From: Candidatus Bathyarchaeia archaeon
GTDB taxonomy: Archaea; Thermoproteota; Bathyarchaeia; 40CM-2-53-6
Length of the DNA: 57,589 nucleotides
Assembly (NCBI GenBank): GCA_050012535.1
Contig: JBEKGZ010000001.1
Coordinates: 1-57,589, forward strand
Direction of reading: 5' to 3'
Below, one piece after another: positions 1 through 41,885 of this stretch (positions are counted from its first letter, which is position 1; every line of letters starts with the position of its first letter). Below the pieces are notes generated by a model. It worked only from the letters and a program-made list of their open reading frames with translations, ran no database searches and had not been told where the DNA came from. The position numbers were made by a program, and so were the translations under genes.

Positions 1-202
1 TCCTTTTTGCCTTCTCCACTGCCTCTAGGCTCGCTAGGAACTTTCCTGCTGCAAGCGGCAGTGGAACGTAGGTCTCGGTGTCACGAGAACAGTAGGGGCG
101 TCGTAAGTTGAACCGTCGTTCTCGGATCGATTTGTGTGTATGTGCGCACCAAGGTACCCGACGACGACTGTTAGGGTTCAGGTGACCGCCGGCAGATTCC
201 TG

Positions 203-1240
203 TCAGTCATCACCTTCAAAATACGTCTTGGCAAAGTCTCCCACTATGTCTTGGTACTTCTCAATGGCAGGATGTGGTTTACGTAGCTTCATAGCGTAGG
301 TACCTGCTTCTCTTGCTAGATCTCTGAATACAGACGATTGCACCCTGTCCCCAGACTCCTTGGTCAGGTAACCGATCAAAGCGTTGACGACAATTCTTTC
401 CAACCAAAGCATTGCCGGAGCTCTTATCTCAATTCGTTTGTCGTCTCTTGGCGCCACGTATACGATGCTTCTTCTCCCAAGAAAGTCCGCCATGCTGACG
501 GGGCTAGGCAAGTCCTCTCCATCGTGAACGAAACTATTGCGTATGAAGTATGCGGAAAGTAATCTCTTTTTGAGTAGATCTATTTCTCCTTCAGCCGCCA
601 AGACACCAGTTGGCAGATACTTGCAGATGAACTCCACGAACTTCACGGAACTCGGGATTCTCCTCGATCTATTCCTCTTAAACTTGGAACCATAGAAACT
701 CTCATACAGGGTCCATGCCACGTCACTTTCCCGAATATCCATACTGTTGGACAGACACTCGATTGCCACAACTAGCAGAAAGAACGAGACAACAGGTTCC
801 CTGTCATATATTGAGACAGCTTGGCGGTATCTCTTACAAGCATTAACAAGTCGCTTTCGCTGCTCGTCACTCAGACTGCAGAATCGCGAGTAGTGTTCCT
901 TTGCGGCCTCAAAGTTGAATGGTTTTTTGCTCAAGACGTACTTCCTTTCTAATGTGACAATATTCTCTTTGTTCCACAGTCCTGCTTGAAACTCGCAGTT
1001 CGATAGTGAGATCAACGAGAGAAATGAGAGGAAGTAATTCGCTTCGAGTTTTACCAGGTTGAAGAACATGTCTTTTGGAAGCGGACCGGGTTCGGCTTCA
1101 AAGACCAGAATAGCCTCGGAATTGTCGGTCGAAGGTATTTGTTCGATAGCGTAGTCTCCAATGGGTACCCTACCCGTGTTGTCCGGAACGAAATTGTTTG
1201 ACCTGAACCTTATTCTCACTTCATTCTCAGTAGATTCCAC
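203..1240 (-). CDS. Hypothetical protein with HEPN-type Rx4H motif (Apea/Abi-like putative RNase or toxin)
   Basis: 345-aa ORF. RNSFVH (Rx4H, residues 234-239, nt 524..541) sits in the helical C-terminal half. No housekeeping family recognised. Lies in the ORF-poor stretch downstream of the tRNA-like gene. Confidence 0.5.
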   Translation of the reverse strand: MESTENEVRIRFRSNNFVPDNTGRVPIGDYAIEQIPSTDNSEAILVFEAEPGPLPKDMFFNLVKLEANYFLSFLSLISLSNCEFQAGLWNKENIVTLERKYVLSKKPFNFEAAKEHYSRFCSLSDEQRKRLVNACKRYRQAVSIYDREPVVSFFLLVVAIECLSNSMDIRESDVAWTLYESFYGSKFKRNRSRRIPSSVKFVEFICKYLPTGVLAAEGEIDLLKKRLLSAYFIRNSFVHDGEDLPSPVSMADFLGRRSIVYVAPRDDKRIEIRAPAMLWLERIVVNALIGYLTKESGDRVQSSVFRDLAREAGTYAMKLRKPHPAIEKYQDIVGDFAKTYFEGDD

Positions 1241-1540
1241 CAGGCTTCACCCCGAGAAACAACCGGTCTCACACCTTTCTATAGGTTCTCAGTAGCAGAC
1301 TGACGGCTAGGGAACTTGAATAGGAAGCGTGTCGAAGTGACGCACTATAAGGCGTTGCAGAGCGAAACAACAACTCAAGTTCGATGGTTTCTGCGCGTAC
1401 GCGAGCGCCTAGAAGGGGTGCTGTAAAGTCTCCGATTGACGGCTTTTGGGTTTGGGCTGTCAAAATTCGGTTGATTCATTCAAAATATGAGTTCTCCGTT
1501 AGAAGGTAACGCGTCATTGTTGTTTGGTATGGAGGGCTGT

Positions 1541-1777
1541 TTACTTTCGTTTGGTTGGATTCCGGCTTCTCCACATGTCAATACATATGCCAAGAACCAG
1601 TGTGATTAGTACTATAGCAATTACAAACTCAGGCACACTTACCGTAATTCTTCCACCTGCGAATTTTGAGTTCCAAGTCCATCCATGAACAGCGTATGCA
1701 ATAAGCGTCGAAAGGCAAGCAACAAAAGTCAATCCGACACAATACTTTACAATACGCTTTCCAAGTTTAGTACTCAA
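1541..1777 (-). CDS. Small hypothetical membrane protein
   Basis: 78-aa ORF with two hydrophobic helices (VGLTFVACLSTLIAYAV and FVIAIVLITLVLGICI) and a basic C-terminus. No homolog recognised. Confidence 0.35.
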   Translation of the reverse strand: MSTKLGKRIVKYCVGLTFVACLSTLIAYAVHGWTWNSKFAGGRITVSVPEFVIAIVLITLVLGICIDMWRSRNPTKRK

Positions 1778-2834
1778 ATTACTTCACACTCTTTTTCATT
1801 ACCGACAAATAAAGATCGGCGTTCTTCCGCATCTAGGCTCGCAAAGGGTTCCTTAGACAACCACCATTTGACGCCTTCATATACAAAAACATGGCCCATC
1901 CGACGAAAGGTAACAGTCAGTCAGAGGGGGTCCGTACGGAACCCGTCCGACGAGAACGTACCAAAGCACTAGAAGGGGCGCAATGACAGGCAAATACCCA
2001 AACCGGGCATGGCGAGAAAAAGGACTTGTTGATTGGCAAACAGAAAGAGCCATATGATAAATCTCCATACTAGATTGCTTATCCTGACAACACAGAAAGC
2101 CCGCTTCGTTATTGGTCCAAGTACACGGAGGTTCTCTCAGTGAAAGGGTGCTCGGGATGCACTCGTGACGGGAATTGCCCTCTTCAAGAAATGGGAACGA
2201 AAACAAACAGAGTCTGTAGATGGCGTGTCGAAAAGCTAGAGGAGGCACAATGCTAACCCAAGGGTATCGTGGTCGCCGTTACCGTATCTATTTCAGTGGT
2301 GACGGCGATTCTGCTGATACAGAAGTTCGGAGCGACGTGGAATGTTGTCCCCGTAATGGTTTTTGCAATCATTGTGTCCACGATACAGGGTGCTCTGAAT
2401 AGACATCCGCCGATGCCGAACAAGTGCAAAGAACAGCCATCAACCGAACGGAGCCGCTATCCGAGGCTAAGAAGAACATGTTTAGAGTGGATCTCATCCT
2501 GGTGGGCGTCCCATGATCCTGTTTATTTCCGAGCAACGCAACAGTCCAAGCCATGGATGTGTCACCCGCCATGAGCAAAGTAGGAGAAAAGGTACTGCCA
2601 CTCATGGAAGGTGGCGGGCCCGCGGGGTCTCGCGTCTCTGTTGTATCCAGCACGCCAGTATGCAATTGTTTGTAAGACTAGACGCTCCTACCAGAGGCTT
2701 CTCAGCAGTGGAATGCTCTTGGATCGTGTTTATGTCTCGGCAATGCAACACCTGATGGCAGCGAGGAAGTCGACGCTGGGAACCCCCAACCACCAAGGTC
2801 CAAACCGAAAATTCGACGCAGCAACCCATCAATT

Positions 2835-2857
2835 GTGGGTAAGCCCAATTTACCCAC
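2835..2857. repeat. Perfect 8-bp inverted repeat hairpin (gtgggtaa-gcccaat-ttacccac)
   Basis: Read directly from the sequence. Lies about 50 nt 3' of the tRNA-like gene in minus sense. The loop motif agcccaat recurs at 2882..2889. Confidence 0.6.
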
Positions 2858-2950
2858 GAATTACCCAGAACGTACCGAGACAAGCCCAATCAAGTATGGA
2901 AGGATGGTGCGGCCGCCGGGATTTGGACCCGGGTTAGAGGCTTGGGGGGC

Positions 2951-2973
2951 CTGCGGCGAGGCTCATTGCTCGT
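2951..2973 (-). other. Putative BHB intron 2 of the tRNA (in the anticodon stem, position 29/30)
   Basis: RNA sense: ACGG-AGA-CGAG-CAAUGAGC-CUCG-CCGC-AGG. The inner helix has 4 bp, the central helix has 3 WC pairs plus A-C, and the two bulges are 3 nt each. Excision creates a perfect 5-bp anticodon stem GAGGC/GCCUC. Confidence 0.5.
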
Positions 2974-2990
2974 CTCCGTCTTAGACCAGG

Positions 2991-3012
2991 TTGACCACCG
3001 CACATGGCGGTT
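2991..3012 (-). other. Putative BHB intron 1 of the tRNA (in the D-loop, about position 15/16)
   Basis: RNA sense: GUCU-AGA-ACCGC-CAUGU-GCGGU-GGUC-AAC. This is a central helix (3 pairs plus a U-U mismatch) followed 3' by a 3-nt bulge on each strand, with a 5-bp inner helix. Excision yields the canonical D-loop AGCCUGGUCUA. The junction register is ambiguous because UGGUC is repeated. Confidence 0.4.
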
Positions 3013-3178
3013 CTAGACCACGGCCTCGTGGAGGCACATGTCCTCACGCACCCCTGATCCGGCCCTTTCGGCCGCATTCCACAACTACCCAGTTCAGTCA
3101 TAAAACAATGTACCTGCTAGAGGGGTCCAAACGCGGGCGCCAAAAGCGTTTTCTCTCCCAAACTGTATGCCTTGAATC

Positions 3179-4612
3179 ATGAATCTTTCAAGCTGGTGCA
3201 CGGTCGACGAAGCACTGTACGTCGCGTACGCTAACGAGGAATGGCGTCAGTATGCCGGTTTCAGTTACAGCGAATCGTTCATGAAATCCATTTCTGAGAA
3301 ACGAATCAACCACGCAAAGGATTTCTTATCAGAGTTCAAGGAACCGAGACGCCTGTATCTTGGCAAGGTTTACGATGTCGCGGACGCGTCGAAGACACCG
3401 CTCAAGCTCGAGCTGTACCGAAAACGTGAGCACGACATCGTTTCCAAATCCTATGAAGTGAATGGCAGGGCGGTGACATGGAACAGCTGGAGACAATTCA
3501 GCGCTCAAACGGGATCCTCTGCGGATCGAAAGGCGGTCTTCGACGAGTTCGTCGGCAAAGTGGACCTAGTAACGCCAACGATCAAAGGGATGTTTGAGAA
3601 GTCGAAAGAGGTTGAGAGCCAGTACCGCACGTCGCCACTCCAAGTGTACCTGCAATTGGAGGGTCTTGAGCTCCAGCAACTGAAGGATCTCGTGAAGACA
3701 CTTGGTCATGCCGCCAAGAAACCGTTCGCCGGGCTGCTCGAACACTACTCTCAGGAACTGAACGGCAGATCTGCCGAATACTACGATGATCTCTACTATT
3801 TCCGGGGTAGAATCTTCGAAGCTCTAGACCCAGCCTTCAAGAGCTATAGCCCGGTCACTGAACCTGAGCGCGTGTTGGCGAAACTCGGTTTCCCTGTTAA
3901 GAGGCTGCAGACAGATGCGGAGGAACGGCCGGGAAAGCACACTTCTCCGATATGTTTCGGGGTTCAGATCCCGAATGATGTGCGACTGCTTGTGCGTCCG
4001 GTGAAACCGTTCACCGACATGGAGAGCTCCATGCATGAGCATGGACACGGTATGCACTTCATCTCAATCTCCGAGGACGCGCAGTACTGGGACAAGTACA
4101 CGATCCCAAACGGGGTCGCCGAGATATTCTCCACGCTCATCGAACGACTCATGAAGAAGCGAACTTTTCTGACGAAACAGTTCAAAGTGTCGAAAGAAGT
4201 TGCCGAGGAAGCCATACAACGCACGAGATTCATGGAGCTGTATTTCCTTACCTTCTATGCAGCCAACTCGCTAATGAAGATCGAATTCTGGGAAGAGAAC
4301 CTATCAATGGAGGAAGCGAACGACCGATACGAACGGTACACAGAGCAATTCATGGGCATGCGCCTACCCGGCAAATACTGGCAGCTGCATCACGTAATGC
4401 CAGACTTCGACCTATACTCTCCAAGCTACATGGTCGCCGCAGTCCGCGCAGCCGAACTTGATCGGAAGCTAGAGAACCTCTTCGGAGCAAACTGGTGGAC
4501 CGATAAACGCGCCGGCAACTACATACGCACCGTGGCGAAGGATGGAGCAAGCATCAAGCTGTCACGATTCTCCAAACTCGATACTCGACCGTTCCTGAAA
4601 GACCTGCTTTGA
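3179..4612 (+). CDS. Zinc metallopeptidase, HExxH type (M3 / oligoendopeptidase F-like)
   Basis: 477-aa ORF with the motif MHEHGHGMHF (HExxH), helical throughout. Confidence 0.55.
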   Translation: MNLSSWCTVDEALYVAYANEEWRQYAGFSYSESFMKSISEKRINHAKDFLSEFKEPRRLYLGKVYDVADASKTPLKLELYRKREHDIVSKSYEVNGRAVTWNSWRQFSAQTGSSADRKAVFDEFVGKVDLVTPTIKGMFEKSKEVESQYRTSPLQVYLQLEGLELQQLKDLVKTLGHAAKKPFAGLLEHYSQELNGRSAEYYDDLYYFRGRIFEALDPAFKSYSPVTEPERVLAKLGFPVKRLQTDAEERPGKHTSPICFGVQIPNDVRLLVRPVKPFTDMESSMHEHGHGMHFISISEDAQYWDKYTIPNGVAEIFSTLIERLMKKRTFLTKQFKVSKEVAEEAIQRTRFMELYFLTFYAANSLMKIEFWEENLSMEEANDRYERYTEQFMGMRLPGKYWQLHHVMPDFDLYSPSYMVAAVRAAELDRKLENLFGANWWTDKRAGNYIRTVAKDGASIKLSRFSKLDTRPFLKDLL

Positions 4613-4752
4613 GCGTTTCGAGTCTTCTGAGCCTGAACTGCGACAACCTGTTCCGTACTGGTGCCGACTTCGCCATTGGGGCGACCCAACCCCCCCAGGA
4701 GGGACCCCCCTCGTGGCTCAGGATTGGGCCTTGCCAGCTGACCTAGACGATT

Positions 4753-6970
4753 TTACGCTTCTAGGAAGTCTGCTGCCTTGTGAGGTTCAGGTGGTAGGCC
4801 CTTCCTCTTTCTGATATCTGCGATTACCTGGTTGATCATTGATCCCGGCACTGATGCCCAGTGGGAGAACTCTAAGCCCCAGAAGGCTCTTCCAGCTGAC
4901 GCGCCACGCATGACTTCTGACAAGTCAAACGTCTCTGATGTGGGAAGTTCGCCAACAACGTACACGAGGTGCCCTTTCTGTTCCACCGAGAGGACCTTTC
5001 CACGTTTCTGAGAGATAACGCTAGTAGCAGCTCCTAGCAGGTCGGGTGGTGCCTTCACTGTGATCTTCTGGACAGGCTCGAGGAGTGTTGGGTTTGCCGA
5101 CATGAAGCATGCGAAGATCGCTCTCTGAGTCATAGGCATGATCTGTGCTGGTCCTCGGTGGACTGGGTCTTCGTGGACTGATACGTCAGTTACCTTGACC
5201 TTGATCCCTCGAATAGTCTCGTATGCGAGCGGTCCCTCTCTGAGGGCCTGGCGGTAGCCATGGAGAATGTGGTCTTTGATTTCCTGGAGATACTGTGCTC
5301 CCTTCGTGACTTCGATCAACATGTTTCCGGAGTCTTCGACAGCCCACACGCCGCGTGCCTCATCGGGTGGCCATCCTTTGTCTCGGAGTACTTTCGCCAT
5401 GGCGTGTTTGTCCTGGTACTCGCTGATGTCGCCTTTCTTGATCATGTTGATTGTTTCCTCGTCGAGCGGTTCGACTTGGATGTAGATCTTGTTGTGCCTG
5501 TTCGGTGATCTACCTTCCAATGGGCCCGCCGAGCCACGCACGGTTTCTCGATAGATCACAATCGGGTTCGACGTGACAATTTCGAGTCCTGTTTTCGTTA
5601 TCAGCGTGTTTGCGATCTCCAGGTGGAGTGTGCCCATGCCGGCGATCAGATACTCCCCCGTCTCCTCATTGATCTTGGTAACAAGGTTCGGGTCTTCAAT
5701 CGACAGTCTTCTCAGAGTTTCAATCAGTCGCGGCAGGTCTCGGCTAAACTTCGGCTCCACAGCCATTGTGACGACCGGTTCAGTAACGTACTTGACCGCT
5801 TCGAAAGGCACAACATCCTTGTCCTGTGAAAGCGTCTCGCCCGCTCTGGCTGCGTCGAGTCCTAGAAGCGCGGGTATGTTGCCCGCAGTGATCGTGCCTA
5901 TGATCTCTCTGTAGGGTCCCATGAATATGCAGACCTGCTGGATCCTCTGATCCACTCGGGCGCCAACAAGGTGAATTGGCGTCCCTTCTTTGAGGGTGCC
6001 CGAAAAGAGACGCCCTACTGCGACAACCCCCGCCTGTGGGTCAACTACAATGTTCGTAACTGCTAAGACGGCAGGCCCATTTTCATCGCAGTTCATCATC
6101 GCCTTCCCAACATCGCTATTCAGATCGCCTTTCCATATCTTCGGGATTCGGTACTTCTGTGCGACGTGAGGCGGAGGCATCGCCTCAATGGCCATGTTCA
6201 GTATGGCTTCATGCAGCGGTGCCCTTTCGCGCAGCTCCGCCACCTTGTCGTTCAAGTAAGCGTCTACGACATCCGAGAATTTGATGCCCTTGTTCTTCGC
6301 CACCTCCGCGTTGAATCCCCATCGGTCCTTCGCAGATCCCATAGCGACAGTGTTTCCTGCGAAACTGACTGACCATTTCTCACGATATTCGGGCTCCGCG
6401 TAGAGAATGATAAGTCGGTTGAATTCAGCAATAATACGTGTAATCCTTTCTTGGATTTGGTCAGGTGAAAGTCTGAGCTCCTTGATCAGTCGGTCAATCT
6501 TGTTGATGTACAGAACTGGGCGAACTCTGTCCTCTAGGGCTTGCCTTGTCACAGTCTCAGTCTGTACCATGATCTCCTCGACTGAGTCGACAACTACGAC
6601 GGCACCGTCAATGGCGCGAATGGAACGTGTTACTCTACCAGAGAAGTCAACGTGTCCTGGGGTATCAATGAGGTTGATGACGAACGCGCTTCCCTCGCGT
6701 TCATGCATTAGGCTAACGTTAGCGGCCTTGATGGTCATCTGGCGCTTCTGTTCCTCTTCCATATAGTCTAGGGCTAGAGCTGTGCCTGCGACGTTGGGAG
6801 ACAAGAGACCAGCGGCCGCTAAGAGCGAGTCACTCATAGTGGTCTTGCCGTGGTCGACGTGCGCGATGATCCCGATATATTCCGGGCCAGGCTGATGCCT
6901 ACGCCTTTCGGATCTGGTCCCTGTTCTCGATGATCTTCATGATCTCCGTTGTTGTCTTGTAACGGGGCAT
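4753..6970 (-). CDS. fusA: Translation elongation factor 2 (aEF-2), interrupted by a 28-nt BHB-type intron (exon 1 6907..6970, exon 2 4753..6878)
   Basis: Motifs present: G1 [9 protein letters not shown], G3 DTPGHVDF, G4 NKIDR and the diphthamide site HEDPVHRG. The N-terminus MPRYKTTTEIMKIIENRDQIR is in another frame and ends at TAG 6899..6901. Splicing restores [17 protein letters not shown] and a 729-aa product. Confidence 0.85.
6879..6906 (-). other. Putative BHB (tRNA-endonuclease type) intron within the aEF-2 mRNA
   Basis: mRNA sense: UCCG-AAA-GGC-GU-[AGGC-AUCA-GCCU]-G-GCC-CGGA-AUA. The 4-bp central helix (6909..6912 with 6881..6884) is followed 3' by a 3-nt bulge on both strands. There is a 3-bp inner helix and a terminal 4-bp hairpin. 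Length is 28 nt (3n+1), matching the frame offset. Confidence 0.7.
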
Positions 6971-7021
6971 CTCATTCTCCTATCTTCACTTTGAAAGTGG
7001 GCTGCACAACCTTCAGATGGC

Positions 7022-7029
7022 TTTTATAC
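7022..7029 (-). promoter_or_regulatory. Candidate TATA box for the aEF-2 gene
   Basis: Minus sense aaGTATAAAAgcc lies about 55 nt upstream of ATG 6970. AGGAG sits 8 nt before the ATG. Confidence 0.35.
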
Positions 7030-7100
7030 TTTTTCCAGCTTCGAATCCGCTACGGACAAAAAAGACGTGATATTCGCGGGTTGTCCGGGGAGGTTGCGAA

Positions 7101-7673
7101 ATGAGCGGGTGGGTGATTTGGCTCACTGGCATGCCGGGCAGCGGCAAGTCCACACTCGCTCGCCTCGTCGTTAGACAGCTTCATCGTCGCGATGTTGCCG
7201 CTCAGGTGCTCTCAATAGAAATGGTAAGAGAAGTTCTCACACCGAGACCCAAATACACTGAGCAAGAGAGGCATGTTGTCTACAGCACCCTCGTCTTCGT
7301 CTCCACAATGCTTGCCCGGAACGGTGCCAATGTGATCATTGACGCAACAGCGAACAGACGTAGGTACCGTGATCAGGCAAGGCGGGGCATCAGACGATTC
7401 GCGGAGATCTACCTCAAATGCCCGCTTCAGATTTGTATGGAGCGTGAGAGAGGACGCAAGAGAAGATTTGGAGCGCCGTCCCATATCTATGCCAAAGCAA
7501 GAACGGGCGCGAGCAAGACCGTTCCAGGGATCGGCGTTCCATACGAAGTACCGCTCTCTCCTGAGCTCACAGTGGATACCTCGGAGCTCAAACCCAAAGA
7601 ATCGACTGAGCAAATAACACGGTTCGTCTTGACCAGATTCCATCGTCCCCGACGGATCACCGCAAAACGCTAG
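7101..7673 (+). CDS. P-loop kinase, adenylylsulfate kinase (CysC)-like
   Basis: 190 aa. N-terminal Walker A WLTGMPGSGKSTLA, with size and layout typical of APS-kinase-like NMP-kinase folds. Confidence 0.55.
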   Translation: MSGWVIWLTGMPGSGKSTLARLVVRQLHRRDVAAQVLSIEMVREVLTPRPKYTEQERHVVYSTLVFVSTMLARNGANVIIDATANRRRYRDQARRGIRRFAEIYLKCPLQICMERERGRKRRFGAPSHIYAKARTGASKTVPGIGVPYEVPLSPELTVDTSELKPKESTEQITRFVLTRFHRPRRITAKR

Positions 7674-7679
7674 TGTTTT

Positions 7680-8819
7680 GTGCAAATTCGTATCCTACCC
7701 GTACCGGAAGCATTTGGCATGGCAGAGCTGAGACTCAGCGCATTGAGGGACTACTTGAGTTCGCTTGAGAAACGAGACGTGGAGATCTTGCGCGTTGGCG
7801 GCCTTCAGAAACCGAAAAAGACGAGACTTGTAGGGAAATTGAAGGGCTTCGGATACGGCACGCCATACCTCATCGAGTACAAAGCTGGTGCAAAGACGAA
7901 AAGCGGCGTCTTCGAAACGATGCGTCCAGGCGGATTTGGGCACGACTTTCCATGGGACAGAGCGCAGTCGATCCTCTTCGGTCATCGCACCTACAATCGG
8001 CTGCCTAAGCACGTTCATTCGATCGATGTCGGGATACTCACGAAGAAGAGTGAACTCCGGTCTGTGGGCGACTTTTCGGAATTCTTCATTCTAACCGAGA
8101 AGGTAGAGGGCCAAGGCTACTACAAGGACCTCGAGAGAGTAAGAGACTCAGGCACCATGACAGACTTGGATCTAAGAAGGTGCGTCGCTCTCTCAGACTA
8201 CATCGCCCGTGTCCACAGGGTCAAGAAGAAAGCCCCTGACCTCTACGTGCGAACGGTACGGGATCTAGTTGGCCATGGAGAATGCATAATGGGCCTCATC
8301 GACAGCTATCCAAAGGAAGCCGATTTCCTAGAGAAGGATGAACTCAAGGAAATTGAGAAGAAGTGTATCGAGTGGAGGTGGACACTGAAGAACAAGTCTC
8401 GCGCTCTCTGTCGAGTCCACGGCGACTTTCATCCTTTCAACATCATGTTCCGAAAGGGGGTAGACTTCACGGCTCTAGATCGAAGCCGGGCAGAGTGGGG
8501 GGAAGCAGCGGATGATGTGGCTGCAATGTCGATCAACTATCTCTTGTTTTCCATCCAGAAGTATGGCAGGCTCGTGAGTCCATTCGATCAGCTCTACGAG
8601 TCATTCATGAGAACCTACTTGGACGCGACAGGGGACGACGAGTTGCTTGAGGTAATCCAGCCGTTCTACGTGTGGAGATGCTTGGTGGTGGCAAGTCCAA
8701 TCTGGTACCCTGACTTAAGCAGACACAATAGGAGGAGCTTCTTCAATTTCATACATGCTATGCTCGACAACGATCGATTCGACGTCAAAGCAATCAACAG
8801 CTACTTAGGCGACGCTTGA
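7680..8819 (+). CDS. Phosphotransferase (APH / choline kinase-like) family protein
   Basis: Catalytic-loop motif VHGDFHPFNIMF (HxDxxxxN). GTG start at 7680, with an alternative ATG at 7719. Confidence 0.6.
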   Translation: MQIRILPVPEAFGMAELRLSALRDYLSSLEKRDVEILRVGGLQKPKKTRLVGKLKGFGYGTPYLIEYKAGAKTKSGVFETMRPGGFGHDFPWDRAQSILFGHRTYNRLPKHVHSIDVGILTKKSELRSVGDFSEFFILTEKVEGQGYYKDLERVRDSGTMTDLDLRRCVALSDYIARVHRVKKKAPDLYVRTVRDLVGHGECIMGLIDSYPKEADFLEKDELKEIEKKCIEWRWTLKNKSRALCRVHGDFHPFNIMFRKGVDFTALDRSRAEWGEAADDVAAMSINYLLFSIQKYGRLVSPFDQLYESFMRTYLDATGDDELLEVIQPFYVWRCLVVASPIWYPDLSRHNRRSFFNFIHAMLDNDRFDVKAINSYLGDA

Positions 8820-8879
8820 ATCTGCGTAGGATTGCAGGGATGTCCCTGCGAATCTCTCAAGCCATATGAGGTCCGTGAG

Positions 8880-9908
8880 TTGGGCTGCAATCTTCGCCCG
8901 ATCATCGTCCGAAGAGAGATCAAACTCGAGGAATTGCGGCGAAAACTGTTAGCCGTTGACGGGAACAACATGCTCTACCAGTTCTTATCTCTCATCAGGA
9001 CACCGGACGGAGTTTCACTCAAGGACCCTGAGGGTCGCACAACCTCGCATTTGACGGGACTCCTGTTCCGATCGACAAAGCTGATGCTCGACTACGATCT
9101 GAGGTTCGTATTCGTCTTTGACGGCCCACCTCACCCATTGAAGGCAGGAGTGTTGGCTGAGCGAAGGACTGTCCGGGAGAAGGCTAGGACTGAATGGAGC
9201 GAAGCTCTGCAAAGACATGATTTTCAGACTGCTTGGTCCAAGGCAGTGATGATGAGCAAACTCGATCAGCCTATGATAGACGATGCGAAGCGCTTGCTGT
9301 CTCTGATGGGTGTACCGTATGTGCAGGCTCTGGGGGAAGGCGAAGCCCAAGCAGCGTTCATGGCTTCACATGGAGATGCCTGGGCCGCAAGCAGCAGAGA
9401 CTACGACTCAATCCTGTTCGGGAGCCCACGTGTCGTGCGATATCTCACGATCTCAGGACGTGAGTTTCTGCCGAGTAAGGGAATCTCTCGTCCGCTGAAA
9501 CCCGAACTGATAGAACTCTCTAGCTTTCTCAGAGACAACGGGATCACTCGCGAAGAGCTCGTGGACTTGGCGATAATGATTGGAACAGACTTCAACGAAG
9601 GTATCAAAGGGATAGGCCCGAAAACCGCACTCAAGCTAATGAAGCGTCACGGGTCGCTTGAGGCTCTTCCGGATGACTTGAGGGCCAAGATGCCGCGCAA
9701 CTTGGACACGCTCCGGAGCATATTCCTACGACCGGAGGTTACACCCCAGTACTCGATTCTACAACGACCCGCAGATGAGAAAGGGCTGTTGACGTTCTTG
9801 TGTAACGAAAGAGGTTTCTCACAGGAGCGAGTAGAGATTGCCTTGGAGCGTTTGAAAAGCATCTCCCGGCGCACTTCGGAATCTGACTTGGGACGTTGGA
9901 TTAGCTGA
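8880..9908 (+). CDS. fen: Flap endonuclease 1 (FEN-1)
   Basis: Conserved stretches LLAVDGNNMLYQFL and RFVFVFDGPPHPLK, an H3TH region and a C-terminal PIP-like tail. The likely start is TTG 8880 (MGCNLRPII); the longest ORF starts at 8832. Confidence 0.85.
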   Translation: MGCNLRPIIVRREIKLEELRRKLLAVDGNNMLYQFLSLIRTPDGVSLKDPEGRTTSHLTGLLFRSTKLMLDYDLRFVFVFDGPPHPLKAGVLAERRTVREKARTEWSEALQRHDFQTAWSKAVMMSKLDQPMIDDAKRLLSLMGVPYVQALGEGEAQAAFMASHGDAWAASSRDYDSILFGSPRVVRYLTISGREFLPSKGISRPLKPELIELSSFLRDNGITREELVDLAIMIGTDFNEGIKGIGPKTALKLMKRHGSLEALPDDLRAKMPRNLDTLRSIFLRPEVTPQYSILQRPADEKGLLTFLCNERGFSQERVEIALERLKSISRRTSESDLGRWIS

Positions 9909-9927
9909 TGACCAAGATCTCACGGGG

Positions 9928-11538
9928 GTGATGGCGTATATGGCTTCGACATCCTTCCTAGCCTTCGCAGAGCTCTGCGAGAAATTGGAAGCCACTAGAA
10001 GCCGAAACGAAAAAGTACAACAGATCTCAAGTTTCATCTCCACGCTTCAGCCCAATGAGGTTCCGATCGCCGTTCGGTTCTTGACCGGCCGCGTTTTGGG
10101 TGAGCAAGAGATTAGGAAACTGGGGGTAGGCGGAGCCACCATTTGGAAGCTCGCGAAAGCCGACAGTCTGCAAATTTCCCTACTCCCAACCGAGACCGGG
10201 CTGGGCCTGCCTGACGTGAACAGAGCCTTTGAGTCGCTGGCCTCTTTGAGCGGGCCAGATCGCCAACAGAGAGCGGAGAATATCCTGCAGGGACTATTCT
10301 CCAGATTCGGTGAAGTTGAGAAGAAGTACGGATTTCGAGTGCTCTCAGGTGAGATGGAAATCGGGGCAGTAGACGGCGTGCTCCTCGCAGCGATCGCAGC
10401 TGCTTCGAAACTTGACTTGAACAGACTCCGCAGAGCATACATGACGATGGGCGACATCGGACACATTGCGCAATTAGCACTCACGAATCCAAGTGCGGTG
10501 GAGTCAGCAAAGATCGTCATCTTCAATCCCGTCAGACCCATGCTCGCAGAGATGGCAACCAGTATCCGAGAAATTCTCGAATCTCACAAGGGTGGGACTG
10601 CATTCGAGTACAAGTATGACGGTGCCCGCATACAGATTCACAAGCAGAACGGCGAAGTCCGTATCTTTAGCAGAAGGCTGACCGATGTTACGGCGAGTAT
10701 CCCCGAGATCATCGCAATGGCCAAGGATCGAATGGCAATCAAGACAGCTCTCCTGGAAGGTGAGGTAATTGCCGTTGATGACACTGGGAAACCCCTCCCG
10801 TTCCAAGACCTGATGCGCCGGTTTCGACGAGTTCATGATGTGACGGGAGCAACGAGCAGAGTTCCACTGAAGCTGTATCTCTTCGACATTTTAGTGTCAG
10901 GTGATGATGAGTTGGTTGACAGGGCCTACGTGGCAAGGCGGAAGATACTGGAGCAAGAAGTCCCTCGAGACTTGCTTGCTCCGTATGTCGTGTCCAAAGA
11001 TGAGGATGAGATTCAACGCCTCTTCGAAAGGGTGCTTGCCGAAGGACACGAGGGACTGATGGCGAAGTCTTTGGACAGTAGATATGACGTCGGCAAGAGA
11101 GGCAAGAAATGGTTCAAGCTGAAGCGGGCGGAGACGCTCGACCTCGTCATCGTTGCGGCTGACTGGGGGTACGGACGTAGAACCGGGTGGCTATCTAACT
11201 ACCATCTTGCCGCCCGAGACGAGAGCACGGGAGAGTTTCTAGTAGTGGGAAAGACCTTCAAAGGGCTGACCGACGAAGAGTTCGCACAGATGACCAAGAG
11301 ACTCCAAGAACTGAAGTCGCACGAGGAGGAGTTCACAGTCACTGTGAAGCCTAGGATGGTCGTGGAGGTTGCCTATGATGAGATACAGCGAAGCCCTCAC
11401 TACAAGTCAGGCTTCGCATTAAGATTCGCCAGAATAGCAAGAATCAGGGATGACAAGACACCGGATGAGGCAGATTCCCTGCAGAGAATGCGCAACCTAT
11501 ACGATGGACAGTTCTCCAGAAAGGGTATGCTTAAGTGA
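9928..11538 (+). CDS. lig: ATP-dependent DNA ligase
   Basis: Adenylation motif I EYKYDGARIQIH and an OB-domain C-terminus. 536 aa. Confidence 0.9.
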   Translation: MMAYMASTSFLAFAELCEKLEATRSRNEKVQQISSFISTLQPNEVPIAVRFLTGRVLGEQEIRKLGVGGATIWKLAKADSLQISLLPTETGLGLPDVNRAFESLASLSGPDRQQRAENILQGLFSRFGEVEKKYGFRVLSGEMEIGAVDGVLLAAIAAASKLDLNRLRRAYMTMGDIGHIAQLALTNPSAVESAKIVIFNPVRPMLAEMATSIREILESHKGGTAFEYKYDGARIQIHKQNGEVRIFSRRLTDVTASIPEIIAMAKDRMAIKTALLEGEVIAVDDTGKPLPFQDLMRRFRRVHDVTGATSRVPLKLYLFDILVSGDDELVDRAYVARRKILEQEVPRDLLAPYVVSKDEDEIQRLFERVLAEGHEGLMAKSLDSRYDVGKRGKKWFKLKRAETLDLVIVAADWGYGRRTGWLSNYHLAARDESTGEFLVVGKTFKGLTDEEFAQMTKRLQELKSHEEEFTVTVKPRMVVEVAYDEIQRSPHYKSGFALRFARIARIRDDKTPDEADSLQRMRNLYDGQFSRKGMLK

Positions 11539-11633
11539 TCAAGACCTTACCGAGCATAGTGGCCCCCAGCGTATCCTTCGGGCCGTTCTAGGAGGATCTA
11601 AACGATCACAGCGAGACAGGCTGGTCTTGATGC

Positions 11634-11951
11634 TTGAAGTTCTGTGAGAAATGCGGATCATACATGGTCAAAGTTCCAGGCGGATTCTCCTGCCCAAGGT
11701 GTGGGAATGAGGCTCGTGACCACGCGATTGAGGTTCGACGTATTGAACATCGTGACTCCTCTTCCGTTGGCGTGGTTGACAAGCCAGAAGGTGAGTATGT
11801 GAAGGTCAATGAAACATGCCCCCGGTGTGGTAATCGTGAGGCTTTCCGGAATGTCTCTGTCGTTGCTGGAGAACACGCAGGGATCAGGCAAGAGAGATCA
11901 GTGGAGCGGTTGAAATGCACGAGGTGTCAGCACTCTTGGAGCAGAACGTGA
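11634..11951 (+). CDS. TFS / RpoM-family double zinc-ribbon protein (divergent C-terminal ribbon)
   Basis: TTG start. N-ribbon is CEKCG..CPRCG and C-ribbon is CPRCG..CTRCQHSW. The canonical QxRSADEP acidic loop is absent. Confidence 0.65.
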   Translation: MKFCEKCGSYMVKVPGGFSCPRCGNEARDHAIEVRRIEHRDSSSVGVVDKPEGEYVKVNETCPRCGNREAFRNVSVVAGEHAGIRQERSVERLKCTRCQHSWSRT

Positions 11952-12016
11952 ATCTAGCTTGCCGAGTCTTCTGACGATTGCATTCCAGATCGAAAAATGC
12001 TGAGTGAACGTCGCAG

Positions 12017-12715
12017 GTGCCCGGATTGCGAGCTTGTGTGCTGTTCAGTGGAGGAAAGGATAGCGCCTTTGCGCTGTGGTGCGCAATTCATCAAGGTTAC
12101 GAGATACCGTGCCTTCTGACGATCTTCCCCCAACGCAGCGATTCTTGGATGTTCCATTATCCCGATATCGAGTGGACTCGCCTTCAGGCTGAGGCCGTTG
12201 GGATTCCACAGGTGACTGCAAAGGCTTCTGGGGTGAAGGAGGAGGAACTCGGCGCGATGAAGGAGGCATTACTCGAGCTCAAGCGCACGCGTGGAATCGA
12301 CTGCGTGGTGACCGGTGCAATTGCCAGTGAGTATCAGAAGTGGCGCATTGAGACAATATGCTACGAGCTTGGACTCCGATCGGTCGCGCCGCTGTGGAGG
12401 AAAGATCCGGAGCAGCTGCTCACCGAACAGGTGGAGATGGGGTTCGAGTTCATCCTGACAGCATGCATGGCAATGGGACTTGGCCCAGACTGGCTTGGAC
12501 GCGTGATTGACAGCAAAGCCATAGACGAACTGAAGAGTATCAGGAGAAGATACGGGATTAGCCTGGTCTTCGAGGGAGGGGAGGCAGAGACCTACGTACT
12601 CAATGCACCTATGTTCACCAAGAGAATCCGTATTGCTGAGGCGCGTCCTGTCTGGAAGGGAGATTCAGGCTCCCTAGATATTGTTAGAGCGAGCTTGTAC
12701 GACAAGGATGCCTAG
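12017..12715 (+). CDS. Diphthine-ammonia ligase-like PP-loop ATPase (MJ0570/Dph6 family)
   Basis: N-terminal CVLFSGGKDS PP-loop. 232 aa. Confidence 0.7.
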   Translation: MPGLRACVLFSGGKDSAFALWCAIHQGYEIPCLLTIFPQRSDSWMFHYPDIEWTRLQAEAVGIPQVTAKASGVKEEELGAMKEALLELKRTRGIDCVVTGAIASEYQKWRIETICYELGLRSVAPLWRKDPEQLLTEQVEMGFEFILTACMAMGLGPDWLGRVIDSKAIDELKSIRRRYGISLVFEGGEAETYVLNAPMFTKRIRIAEARPVWKGDSGSLDIVRASLYDKDA

Positions 12716-14025
12716 ACCTGCTGTGAACGAGCTAGCAGATCTTGTGTTACTCGATCGACATTCTCTGCGATCGTTTTCGGGTCGAGTATTGTGAACCTGC
12801 GTTTCTCCATGAGGACCTTGCCGTTGACAATGGTAGTATCGACGTTGGCACCGTTCGCAGAATAGACGAGGTCGGAGATGACCGTGTCTTTTCCGTGAAT
12901 CGGCATCATGTTAGGAGCGCTAGTGTCCACGAGAATCATGTCGGCAGATTTGCCGACCTCTATGCTTCCTATCGTCCCTTCCATGCCCAGCACTCTCGCC
13001 CCCTCTCTAGTGGCTAGGTCGAGTGTCATCTGAGCAGGAAGTAGAGTAGGATCCCAACGTGTATGTTTGTGCAAGAGTGCACAGAACTTCATCGTCTCAA
13101 ACATATCTAACGTATTGTTACTTGCTGCACCATCAGTGCCAAGCCCCACGCACACATGGCTCTCGAACATTTCGGGAAGTGGTGCCGCGCCGCCAACCGC
13201 GAGCTTCATGTTGGACACGGGGCAGTGCGCAACCTTAGTGCCAGATTCGCCGAGAAGCTTGACCTCTTTTATGCTGACCCATCCACAATGGGCGCCTACA
13301 ACATTTGCCCCAAGGAACTGAATCCGATCTAGATACTCGACAACCTTCAGTCCTAGTCTGTTCTCGATATCCCCCTGTTCCTTTCTTGTCTCGGCTATGT
13401 GTGTGTGGACCAGCACGTGCTCCTTATCAGCTCGTGCTTTCGCCCATTGAAGTGTCTCTTCTGAGCAGGAATAGACTGAATGCGGAGCAATGGCCGGCGT
13501 GACAAGAGGATTACTGATTTCCTTGAGAAAGTCTAGCACCTTGCTGGCGTTCTCCCTGTGGAGTTTCGGGTCAGGCGTGAGGTCTATGATCACGGAGGAC
13601 AGAACTGCTCGAATGCCCGTGTCACGTATGGCCTTCGCCTCGCTCTCAACGAAAAAGTACATGTCGTTGAAGGTTGTGGTTCCCGAGGCGATCATCTCGA
13701 GGCAGCCAAGCATCGTTCCCCAGTAGCATGTATCTTCCGTCATGTTTGGTTCGAGTTTCCAGATCTTGTTGCTAAGCCACTCTTGGAGCAGCATGTCGTC
13801 TGCGTATCCTCTGAAGATCACCATCGGGACATGCGTGTGCGCGTTTACCAAGCCAGGCAGCAAGATCATTCCATGGCCATCAAGGACCCGATCAGCATCA
13901 TGTGGAGTTCTGCTGCCTATCTCGGCGATCTTCCCGTTCTCGACATAGACCGAAGCATTCCTGAGAACACTCCTCGCGCTGTCTTGAGTCACGATCCACG
14001 AGCAATCTCGAACCAGAAGAGACAT
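12712..14025 (-). CDS. mtaD: Amidohydrolase, 5-methylthioadenosine/S-adenosylhomocysteine deaminase-like
   Basis: Motifs LLPGLVNAHTHVPM, GTDGAASNN and an HxH metal site. 437 aa. Confidence 0.75.
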   Translation of the reverse strand: MSLLVRDCSWIVTQDSARSVLRNASVYVENGKIAEIGSRTPHDADRVLDGHGMILLPGLVNAHTHVPMVIFRGYADDMLLQEWLSNKIWKLEPNMTEDTCYWGTMLGCLEMIASGTTTFNDMYFFVESEAKAIRDTGIRAVLSSVIIDLTPDPKLHRENASKVLDFLKEISNPLVTPAIAPHSVYSCSEETLQWAKARADKEHVLVHTHIAETRKEQGDIENRLGLKVVEYLDRIQFLGANVVGAHCGWVSIKEVKLLGESGTKVAHCPVSNMKLAVGGAAPLPEMFESHVCVGLGTDGAASNNTLDMFETMKFCALLHKHTRWDPTLLPAQMTLDLATREGARVLGMEGTIGSIEVGKSADMILVDTSAPNMMPIHGKDTVISDLVYSANGANVDTTIVNGKVLMEKRRFTILDPKTIAENVDRVTQDLLARSQQV

Positions 14026-41420: not shown

Positions 41421-41885
41421 ATGGGAGCGTACAAGTATGTGTCCAAGGCATGGAGGCAGCCAGGCAAGAGCGCGGTTGATCAGTACCTCCGCCAATCAGC
41501 CATCTCTTGGAGAAGGGATAGCGTCATCAAGCGTCTGGAATTCCCGACTCGTCCGGATCGTGCGAGAAGTCTGGGATACCGAAAGAAGCAGGGTTTCGTT
41601 GTGGCACGGGTGCGCATTAGAAAAGGTGGTGCTAGAAAGAAGCGCCCATCATCTGGACGAAGACCAAAAGCACTTGGCGTAACCAAATTCACTAGAGCGA
41701 AGAGCCTCAAACAGATAGCAGAGGAGCGCGTGGCTAAGAAGTTCCCCAATCTATCCGTTCTGAATTCTTACTATGTGTGGGAAGACGGGACCAGCAAATG
41801 GTTCGAGGTTGTTCTCGTGGATCCAAATCATCCTGCTATCAAGAAAGACGACACAATTGTGCACGCCTTAGCGCTGCATGCATGA
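41421..41885 (+). CDS. rpl15e: Ribosomal protein eL15 (L15e)
   Basis: MGAYKYVSKAWRQP...GYRKKQGFVVARVRIRKGG...DPNHPAI. Only 154 aa, a short C-terminus. Confidence 0.85.
   Translation: MGAYKYVSKAWRQPGKSAVDQYLRQSAISWRRDSVIKRLEFPTRPDRARSLGYRKKQGFVVARVRIRKGGARKKRPSSGRRPKALGVTKFTRAKSLKQIAEERVAKKFPNLSVLNSYYVWEDGTSKWFEVVLVDPNHPAIKKDDTIVHALALHA

Follow-up and report, generated by a model that had tools for sequence, protein, structure and literature searches.

The gene for elongation factor aEF-2 of a soil archaeon of the Bathyarchaeia is split by a 28-nt insert at 6906..6879 on the minus strand, and we conclude that this insert is very probably an archaeal BHB intron lying within the coding region (all coordinates refer to the window, which is the whole stretch of 57,589 nucleotides that we analysed). 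Sequence anatomy, conservation, covariation and recovery of the reading frame were established directly. The intron reading as such is supported by genome comparison, with the splicing being predicted. The novelty would be that a universally essential translation factor carries an intron whose removal is obligatory, and that this intron spans two archaeal classes.

Anatomy of the interrupted gene and fold of the junction

As encoded on the minus strand, the aEF-2 gene is broken, and the pieces given in a preliminary description of this DNA were confirmed base for base. The large ORF (4753..6837) begins with MSDSLL, just past the P-loop; the 13 P-loop codons (6876..6838) share its frame, and no start codon is present 5' of them. 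A 23-aa ORF, MPRYKTTTEIMKIIENRDQIRKA (6970..6899), runs in a different frame and ends at a TAG stop (6901..6899). Reading the sequence in the direction of the gene, we identified a TATA-box-like TATAAAA as the putative archaeal promoter of aEF-2 (7022..7028, minus strand, approximately 55 nt 5' of the exon 1 ATG), as well as a Shine-Dalgarno-like GGAG (6977..6980, minus strand) 7-10 nt 5' of the same ATG. Exon 1 (6907..6970) is 64 nt long and comprises the ATG, 20 codons (MPRYKTTTEIMKIIENRDQIR) and the first base of an Asn codon. It is followed by the 28-nt intron AGGCGUAGGCAUCAGCCUGGCCCGGAAU (6879..6906), delimited by the fold, the relatives and the restoration of the frame, and by exon 2 (4753..6878), which contributes bases 2-3 of the Asn codon, the P-loop and the remainder of the gene through the stop codon. 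The UAG in the exon 1 frame (6899..6901) would end translation of the unspliced mRNA after 23 codons.

Deletion of 6906..6879 (AGGCGTAGGCATCAGCCTGGCCCGGAAT, 28 nt) gives an aEF-2 of 729 aa and recovers both the frame and the Asn codon, exactly as had been proposed. Among 28-nt deletions, RNIG was obtained solely from start offset 64 or 65, which a repeated A makes equivalent; the expected spliced junction reads, in mRNA sense, ..AUCCGAA|AUAUCGGG... The spliced protein carries the diphthamide-loop motif HEDPVHRGPAQ and aligns with the solved structure 8HL1 (query 9-726 to 3-729 of the 729-aa chain), unbroken over the junction. The gene carrying the intron is the sole recognisable aEF-2 gene in this Bathyarchaeia genome, with a distant EF-2 paralogue elsewhere being possible.

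When folded as a 40-nt segment, the junction adopted the same structure in the MFE and centroid predictions, namely the UCCG/CGGA helix, the AAA bulge, the GGC/GCC helix and a hairpin (-15.9 kcal/mol, z = -2.97; 0 of 200 shuffles folded as well). The following positions are all on the minus strand. In the central helix, the exonic 5' strand UCCG (6909..6912), which belongs to the Ile and Arg codons, pairs with the intronic 3' strand CGGA (6881..6884), as indicated by both the fold and the relatives. The 5' bulge AAA (6906..6908) is 3 nt long in all sequences and has its predicted cut between 6907 and 6906, while the 3' bulge AUA (6878..6880), placed by comparison of relatives, would be cut between 6879 and 6878. 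On the intron side (within 6885..6905), the fold contains the 3-bp inner helix h' (GGC 6905..6903 / GCC 6887..6885) and a terminal hairpin (UAGGC 6901..6897 / GCCUG 6892..6888) with the loop AUCA.

The junction had been called a textbook BHB motif, and the 4-bp helix, the 3-nt bulges and the inner helix bear this out in part; the outer helix on the exon side, however, is a weak one, and the 3' bulge grows to 5 nt when 71 nt of context are folded. This bulge is 3 nt long if closed by the pair A6913-U6877, which covaries to G-C in two relatives (L015 and L039). The exon-side helix h consists of A-U, G.A and A-U in the Bathyarchaeia and of 3-5 bp in the Nitrososphaeria. For the motif of the window, the relaxed HBh' class is thus a better match than the strict hBHBh' class, which has flanking helices of at least 2 Watson-Crick pairs. 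In addition, one substitution in the window intron weakens the inner helix relative to its nearest relatives.

Conservation and covariation across archaeal genomes

An alignment of orthologous loci, which the preliminary description had suggested as a check, covered 80 species-representative genomes, and 36 of these have an insert at the identical aEF-2 codon, with compensatory changes in the helices. The 36 genomes belong to the Bathyarchaeia and to deep-branching Nitrososphaeria, including Nitrosocaldus, and together with the window they provided the 37 introns that we compared. One example of a complete genome with the intron is the 2.36-Mb contig CAVSBL010000002.1. The inserts are 27, 28, 29, 30, 31, 32, 36, 37, 42, 44, 45 or 63 nt long and fall into all three frame classes (15/11/11 by length modulo 3). 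The in-frame stop noted earlier inside the excised segment of the window has a counterpart in every intron (37/37), at intron nt 6-8 in 32 of them. Splicing according to the bulge rule yields [IV]RN[IMFL]G in 37/37, as in uninterrupted homologues, and restores the invariant Asn. Within exon 1, column entropies of 10.4, 8.0 and 23.2 for codon positions 1, 2 and 3, respectively, reflect third-position variation on a conserved peptide.

For the pairing test, the splice sites were set from the coding sequence alone and the 4-nt segments ending 2 nt upstream of each cut were used. The central helix was paired at 4/4 positions in 37/37 introns, in the forms UCCG/CGGA, UUCG/CGAA or wobble variants thereof; among the 29 distinct relatives it was 100% paired, and 7 rows had UA in place of CG. 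Counted over the alignment, 90% of the cells were paired versus 24-57% when the partners were slid, 37 cells had changed on both sides, and the observed pairing score was reached by 0 of 500 shuffles. The inner helix covaries freely among relatives, in which its first four pairs are 94% paired, with 28 cells altered on both sides. RNAalifold independently returned a helix, a 3-nt 5' bulge and a further helix, with compensatory changes at 4 of 8 pairs. Because Ile-Arg is encoded within one strand of the central helix, the choice of codons is linked to the structure. Of 37 genes with the intron, 35 use CGA for this Arg, as opposed to 1 of 40 genes without it, and by these counts the codon usage of the exon is bent to fit the RNA structure.

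Two further loci carry BHB-fold introns at other positions, one of 42 nt at AH|VDHGK (L013) and one of 29 nt at GK|TT (L057), and removal of either restores the frame exactly. Together with the main site, this makes three distinct BHB sites within the same ~45-nt P-loop-coding stretch. Some relatives contain a true intein (...GNGIVVHN|TT), 15 codons downstream of the intron site.

The interruption has left its mark on gene annotation. N-truncated gene calls make up 111 of the best 120 protein clusters, one such sequence occurring on 23 contigs from four sources, and gene callers systematically drop the aEF-2 N-terminus, often along with the P-loop, in hundreds of Bathyarchaeia and Nitrososphaeria genomes. 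Such truncated calls affect marker-gene phylogenies, completeness estimates and comparisons of EF-2 and diphthamide. In the protein collection searched, the N-terminal 102 aa of the spliced protein had no full-coverage match above 81% identity, and we found no spliced-form protein from an intron-bearing clade: cluster members were 693-707 aa long or contained an intein and were never 728-730 aa. When metagenome contigs were scanned for the spliced-junction pattern AAYARRGANCARATCCGAAATATNGGNATHATHGCNCAYGT, a single match (L081) and no spliced transcript came up; L081 was rejected as a transcript, as the contig includes a promoter region upstream and comes from a lineage without the intron (MPRFKSSADILK..).

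The remainder of the window was also inspected. EndA and RtcB are not encoded among the ~55 genes of this 57-kb stretch. A window scan for further BHB motifs able to join broken ORFs was non-specific, giving ~2000 matches, mostly fusions of neighbouring genes. The gene for ribosomal protein L15e (41421..41885) is short, with a Pfam coverage of 147/191, and was considered as a second split gene; it showed no sign of an intron, and the sequence downstream of it resembles, judging from its translation, a separate gene for ribosomal protein L13e. Two putative tRNA introns had been assigned to a region about 4 kb from the aEF-2 intron. At that distance there is indeed a conserved tRNA-Gly(CCC)-like candidate with three apparent inserts (~3075..2905, minus strand), but neither default ARAGORN nor Rfam (gathering threshold; E <= 1 over 1..13000) detected a tRNA in the window. 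Relaxed ARAGORN made five calls, of which four were false (inside EF-2, DNA ligase and other ORFs); the call at 10709..10822 is a false positive within the DNA ligase gene.

Alternative explanations and proposed mechanism

Taken by itself, a lone window with a frame-breaking 28-nt insert resembles an error, as it would if the assembly or the sequencing were at fault or the gene were decaying into a pseudogene. Comparison with other sequences has effectively refuted this reading, to which we attach next to no probability. The interruption is shared by 36 other species-level genomes, which come from different studies and were assembled from long reads (contigs of 0.17-2.4 Mb) or with SPAdes or MEGAHIT, and it is present on hundreds of metagenome contigs as well; the remainder of the gene is strongly conserved (75-95% amino-acid identity), and a second close aEF-2 copy is present in none of the genomes among the 80 loci compared. 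The gene might instead be expressed in pieces, with exon 1 acting as an upstream ORF or leader peptide and an N-truncated EF-2 being made from an internal start. Gene callers produce just such models, and in one clade exon 2 opens with an ATG, which leaves the P-loop intact. In the window and in many relatives, however, the first in-frame start lies past the P-loop, so that the truncated product would be without the G1 motif, although the P-loop codons 5' of that Met are perfectly conserved. Exon 1, moreover, is conserved as a protein, is homologous to the aEF-2 N-terminus and has the exact spacing once the insert is removed, all of which makes expression in pieces very improbable.

Full-length EF-2 could also arise from the unspliced mRNA by translational recoding, either through a ribosome hop, as in phage T4 gene 60 or mitochondrial 'byp', or through a frameshift, and the short, hairpin-forming insert with a stop soon after the putative take-off region is reminiscent of gene 60. 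Yet no matched pair of take-off and landing codons reproduces ..RN[IMF]G.., and the codon ahead of Ile/Met/Phe in the exon 2 frame may specify Tyr, Asn, His or Asp. In uninterrupted homologues this position is always Asn, and only the junction cut in both bulges restores it (37/37). It is the base pairing that is conserved (UCCG/CGGA to UUCG/CGAA) and not the identity of the codons, and +1 or -1 shifts cannot handle inserts whose length is a multiple of 3 and that contain in-frame stops; we therefore consider recoding most unlikely. A last alternative keeps removal at the RNA level but assigns it to a route other than EndA and RtcB, be it another structure-specific nuclease with a ligase or self-cleavage. 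The role of EndA is predicted in this case, and the exon-side helix of the Bathyarchaeia is non-canonical; against such a route, the geometry is exactly that of EndA (a 4-bp helix, 3-nt bulges and cuts behind the second bulge nucleotide), and no Rfam family, ribozymes included, matches the intron region at the gathering threshold or at E <= 1 (1..13000). Group I and group II introns have a ribozyme core of hundreds of nt, for which inserts of 27-63 nt are too small. The probability that we leave to a route of this kind is very small. Intein identity was likewise rejected for the 28-nt insert, which has a stop codon within and shifts the frame, as was membership in the cbf5-type family, given that the intron sits in aEF-2 of Bathyarchaeia and Nitrososphaeria and not in cbf5 of Desulfurococcales or Sulfolobales.

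For the preferred reading as a BHB intron, the established tRNA and cbf5 pathways suggest how EndA cleavage, RtcB ligation and a protective stop codon might act together. In the primary transcript, the end of exon 1 (AUC CGA AA, encoding Ile-Arg-Asn) would pair with the CGGA at the 3' end of the intron, which would set the 4-bp central helix between two 3-nt bulges, with a short hairpin closing the intron side. EndA, the tRNA-splicing endonuclease, would cleave behind nucleotide 2 of each bulge, and an RtcB-type ligase would join the exons (CGA A|AU AUC), resulting in the 729-aa aEF-2 with an intact G1 motif. On unspliced RNA, ribosomes would translate 23 codons and halt at the conserved in-frame UAG, and consequently no EF-2 with a damaged P-loop region would be produced. 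As the intron breaks the frame of an essential gene, its splicing would be obligatory. The intron is presumably old and would have been lost precisely several times. Overall, the comparison suggests that protein-coding BHB introns can last over long evolutionary times, constrain codons and recur at several sites in one gene. The ammonia oxidiser Nitrosocaldus is grown in enrichment culture, and the prediction would therefore be directly testable.

A regulatory coupling of aEF-2 to tRNA processing is speculation. We regard as rather unlikely the joint reading whereby the intron would serve as an EndA/RtcB checkpoint on translocase synthesis and the P-loop stretch would be a preferred landing site of BHB mini-introns. 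If the checkpoint part were true, the conserved UAG would keep the unspliced mRNA silent, making this an archaeal counterpart of splicing control of the HAC1/XBP1 type; if the landing-site part were true, the three independent sites and the intein would imply an active mechanism that moves BHB introns into mRNAs.

Comparison with known splicing systems

BHB introns had been described as rare in archaeal protein-coding genes, and the literature that we searched agrees: splicing of archaeal mRNA by the tRNA endonuclease is documented therein for only cbf5 and HVO_1309, which is also the view of a paper from 2020 (PMC7714728). Within this literature, aEF-2 would be the third archaeal mRNA to need tRNA-splicing enzymes. 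The openly searchable full-text literature yielded no account of an archaeal EF-2 intron, and a paper on EF-2 evolution in Bathyarchaeota mentions none (PMC6143161).

The closest parallel is the intron in the cbf5 pre-mRNA of Crenarchaeota (Watanabe 2002; Yoshinari 2006; Yokobori 2009, PMC2738675). In both cases, a short BHB-type intron with a relaxed motif sits in a protein gene of the RNA or translation apparatus of TACK (Thaumarchaeota-Aigarchaeota-Crenarchaeota-Korarchaeota) hosts, its patchy distribution is read as gain followed by losses, and its removal is attributed to EndA and a ligase. The two differ in the gene and in the host classes, which are Bathyarchaeia and Nitrososphaeria for aEF-2, and, unlike the cbf5 intron, that of aEF-2 follows the first 64 nt of the ORF, closely ahead of the P-loop, occurs at three sites and has a positionally conserved stop. 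Furthermore, splicing of cbf5 was shown experimentally, whereas that of aEF-2 is predicted from sequence. HVO_1309 of Haloferax volcanii, which has a BHB intron in its 5' UTR (Schwarz 2020, PMC7714728), likewise provides the archaeal splicing endonuclease with an mRNA substrate that is neither tRNA nor rRNA; there, however, the intron is located in an untranslated leader of a euryarchaeon with a homodimeric enzyme, while the aEF-2 intron interrupts an essential reading frame.

With the non-canonical tRNA introns of Thermoproteota, of the hBHBh' and HBh' types (Marck and Grosjean 2003, summarised in PMC6379350), the aEF-2 intron shares the motif, the size range and the predicted cut positions, but its host RNA is an mRNA and one strand of its helix also codes for Ile-Arg. 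Outside the archaea, eukaryotic HAC1/XBP1 splicing by IRE1 and RtcB resembles the proposed aEF-2 case as a non-spliceosomal, protein-catalysed removal of a short, frame-changing mRNA intron, with ligation by RtcB in metazoans. It differs in that the nuclease IRE1 cuts stem-loops rather than a BHB and that its splicing is a regulated stress switch.

The aEF-2 gene as encoded and after predicted splicing

As encoded, the aEF-2 gene is broken exactly as the preliminary description had stated. Reading the reverse strand, we found a 23-codon ORF (MPRYKTTTEIMKIIENRDQIRKA) extending from an ATG at 6970..6968 to a TAG at 6901..6899, preceded by a TATAAAA box (7028..7022) and a GGAG (6980..6977), and a large ORF starting with MSDSLL (6837..4753); the 13 P-loop codons (6876..6838) are in the frame of the latter and have no start codon. 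Deleting the 28 nt at 6906..6879 in silico yielded, as had been claimed, a 729-aa protein, which aligned continuously through the junction with solved archaeal EF-2 structures (top match 8HL1, a 729-aa chain, E = 5e-262) and retained the diphthamide-loop motif HEDPVHRGPAQ. The bulge-helix-bulge (BHB) fold proposed for the junction was also reproduced: for the 40 nt around the insert, the minimum-energy and centroid folds both comprised a 4-bp helix UCCG (6912..6909)/CGGA (6884..6881), a 3-nt bulge AAA, a 3-bp helix GGC/GCC and a 5-bp hairpin (-15.9 kcal/mol, z = -2.97, with 0/200 shuffles as good), the exon-side helix being weak when a longer context was folded.

Recurrence and covariation of the insert

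In a search of a collection of 5.8 billion proteins, the nearest EF-2 proteins were from Bathyarchaeia, and 111 of the 120 best clusters (72–94% identity) were N-terminally truncated gene calls, which started at MSDSLL or at a 13-residue peptide with the P-loop intact, or ran through the insert. Only 9 among these best 120 were full-length (728–730 aa). Cluster members originated from JGI, ENA, NCBI and Logan, and a single truncated sequence was present on 23 contigs. We also scanned one genome per species of the Genome Taxonomy Database (GTDB), which gave 80 loci, and determined how far the start codon of exon 1 lies from the codons for AHVDHGKTT. This spacing is 78 nt in uninterrupted genes and was 105–141 nt in 36 genomes besides the window, and no genome in the scan provided a second close aEF-2 copy. 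Some aEF-2 contigs or proteins (L004, L005, P0025, P0035 and P0296) are filed under bacteria (Acidiferrales/Acidoferrales, Methylomirabilota, Saccharimonadales) and are most likely mis-binned archaeal contigs. Upstream of aEF-2 in L001, a close relative, the C/D-box sRNA family sR28 matches weakly (661..724, reverse strand; 23.6 bits against a gathering score of 39, E = 0.039).

Splice positions were set by the coding sequence alone (exon 1 ending after ..CGN A, exon 2 starting 14 nt before the Ala codon of the 9-residue P-loop motif), before pairing was examined at the positions given by the BHB rule, i.e., cuts after the second nucleotide of each 3-nt bulge. In 37/37 introns, the 4-nt segment that ends 2 nt short of the 5' cut paired at 4/4 positions with its counterpart ending 2 nt short of the 3' cut, so that the homologous inserts keep the pairing on which the earlier reading depended. 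This central helix is UCCG/CGGA in most Bathyarchaeia, and in Nitrososphaeria and one Bathyarchaeia genome (L039) UUCG pairs with CGAA or CGAG; UUCG/CGAA versus UCCG/CGGA is a double compensatory change, and three genomes carry a G.U wobble. The intron-side helix varies freely in sequence with pairing kept (GGCG/CGCC, GACG/CGUC, GAUC/GAUC, GGUAUGAAG/CUUCAUACC, GGGGU/ACCCC and others), and in two genomes G-C replaces A-U, by covariation, as the closing pair of the 3' bulge. In a gap-free alignment of the junction segments, standard pairs filled 90% of cells (central helix 100%, first four inner pairs 94%), compared with 24–57% when the 3' partners were slid by 1–3 columns; 37 cells had changed on both sides, and 0/500 shuffles matched the observed pairing or covariation score. 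RNAalifold, run on the unmodified, variable-length sequences, independently found the 4-bp helix, 3-nt bulge and inner helix, with compensatory changes in 4/8 pairs.

The introns are 27, 28, 29, 30, 31, 32, 36, 37, 42, 44, 45 or 63 nt long, and their lengths modulo 3 are spread 15/11/11, which indicates no selection for frame retention. All 37 contain a stop in the frame of exon 1, at intron nucleotides 6–8 in 32/37 (CGA AAG NNN UAG or UGA); it is mostly UAG, in the window at 6899..6901. One metagenome protein, P0125, is an apparent exception that reads through the insert (..IRRRRLVHSPEYMGII..), apparently with no in-frame stop as deduced from its protein sequence. Joining according to the bulge rule gave [IV]RN[IMFL]G in 37/37, identical to the uninterrupted homologues, which bears out for the window and its 36 relatives the proposal that excision restores the consensus protein. 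Exon 1 is evolving in the manner of coding sequence, with a summed column entropy of 10.4, 8.0 and 23.2 at codon positions 1, 2 and 3. Its codon usage serves the central helix: Arg is encoded by CGA in 35/37 intron-bearing versus 1/40 intron-less genes, and in the intron-bearing ones the Ile before it is never encoded by AUA. In one clade (L004-L009 and L016), the first residue past the junction is Met (AUG) rather than Ile, so that gene callers report a 706–707-aa protein with an intact P-loop.

Alternative readings and evolutionary history

An assembly artefact, against which the preliminary description had advised a check, or a pseudogene is excluded by the same insert in 36 other species-level genomes, whose contigs include products of different assemblers, to judge by SPAdes-style NODE_ and MEGAHIT-style k141_ names, and large single contigs of 0.17–2.4 Mb, and by the many truncated gene calls. 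The size of the insert, together with the absence of any Rfam match in the region, likewise excludes a group I or II intron or a known ribozyme. For the window and many relatives, internal initiation would produce an EF-2 that lacks the P-loop. Ribosomal hopping or frameshifting across the insert would bypass the stop at the level of translation, but this explanation fails: the invariant Asn is not reproduced by any pair of take-off and landing sites, the residue read in frame ahead of exon 2 is variable (Y, N, H, D), and it is base pairing, not codon identity, that is conserved. With same-site inserts present in 36 relatives, compensatory changes in the helices and the frame restored in 37/37, the identification of the insert as a BHB intron is strongly supported by comparative sequence evidence.

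In a neighbour-joining tree built with the EF-2 proteins of these loci, the intron at the main position (within the Asn codon of Ile-Arg-Asn, just before the P-loop) occurs in almost all of the large Bathyarchaeia clade holding the window, with a nested loss in L012 (Arg codon AGG), in a second Bathyarchaeia clade (L034, L039-L041) and in several Nitrososphaeria lineages (the group around Nitrosocaldus schleperae and archaeon HR04; L047/L050; L054; L067). It is absent from all Nitrososphaeraceae, from L031/L043 and from the Bathyarchaeia clade L025-L033 and L056. N-terminal fragments that carry the labels Nitrosopumilus, Nitrosotalea, Caldarchaeum, Verstraetearchaeota and Thermoprotei span 98–100% of a 102-aa N-terminal query, and this coverage, with the sequence itself read for Thermoprotei alone, suggests that their aEF-2 is uninterrupted. 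An old intron that was lost precisely and repeatedly is the simplest history; separate gains at one favoured site are also conceivable.

Other elements interrupt the same stretch of aEF-2. The hot-spring Bathyarchaeia genome L013 (DRTY-6_201803_bins_58), in which the main intron is absent, carries an insert of 42 nt between the codons for AH and those for VDHGK (~245..290; GCCC AUA ...hairpin... GGGC AGG), and the Nitrososphaeria genome L057 (JZ1_bin.63) has a 29-nt insert within the Lys codon of GKTT (~3095..3125; ACGG AAA CUGAUCAG..CUGAUCAG CCGU AUA), for which bulge-rule splicing gives HGKTTMS. Each of these inserts forms a 4-bp helix and, on the 5' side, a 3-nt bulge (GCCC/GGGC, z = -4.7, and ACGG/CCGU, z = -8.0); each contains in-frame stops, and removing it by the bulge rule brings back the exact frame. 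L011 (1143..3010), P0271 and P0286 combine the main intron with a ~600-aa intein in the P-loop (GK/C...GNGIVVHN/TT), which contains a homing-endonuclease-sized insert and lies 15 codons downstream of the BHB intron. These additional BHB-type inserts and the intein make the 5' end of aEF-2 a hotspot for intervening elements. At the opposite end, casposons of Thaumarchaeota most commonly target the 3' end of ef-2 (PMC6563490).

Genomic surroundings and known archaeal mRNA introns

The neighbours of aEF-2 encode an M3-like peptidase, an APS-kinase-like protein, an APH-family kinase, FEN-1, an ATP-dependent DNA ligase, a zinc-ribbon protein and, 5 kb away, the diphthamide synthase Dph6 (12017..12715, forward strand), whose proximity fits the view that the interrupted gene encodes the canonical, diphthamide-bearing EF-2. 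Beyond these, the window carries ordinary archaeal housekeeping genes (IleRS, CysRS, TFB, Kae1/Bud32, exosome subunits, a proteasome subunit, ribosomal proteins and aIF2-gamma), its 57 kb contain no EndA or RtcB gene, and no further split gene was recognised there; a short L15e gene, considered as a second split gene, was rejected on examination. A tRNA-Gly(CCC)-like gene some 3.9 kb away from the intron (~3075..2905, reverse strand) escapes ARAGORN at default settings and Rfam, and is accepted by ARAGORN as tRNA-Gly(CCC) once three segments with approximate borders (~3068..3021, 3012..2991 and 2973..2951) are removed by hand. In L001, L003 and L029 it is 83–90% conserved, and in L004 a tRNA-Gly(CCC) that contains an intron lies at the syntenic position. 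This is probably what had been described as two putative tRNA introns 4 kb away. Such a candidate gene is consistent with a genome reliant on a broad-specificity splicing endonuclease.

No spliced form of aEF-2 appeared in a junction scan of metagenome contigs or in two protein searches. We infer which enzymes would act on the intron, presumably the tRNA-splicing endonuclease EndA and an RtcB-type ligase, and what the fate of the intron would be. The conserved stop may silence unspliced aEF-2 mRNA and thereby play a protective role, and tRNA processing could be coupled in a regulatory manner to EF-2 supply.

The full-text literature that we searched describes BHB introns in archaeal mRNAs only for cbf5 (Desulfurococcales, Sulfolobales) and the 5' UTR of Haloferax HVO_1309 (PMC7714728, PMC10485636, PMC2738675): a 2020 paper named cbf5 as the only additional example so far (PMC7714728), and a 2023 review mentions "at least two archaeal genes" (PMC10485636). 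A detailed EF-2 study of Bathyarchaeota and other archaea mentions no intron (PMC6143161), and within the searchable full-text literature the aEF-2 intron is unreported. Compared with the known archaeal mRNA BHB introns, the aEF-2 intron would be mechanistically of the same kind, but in a new host gene.
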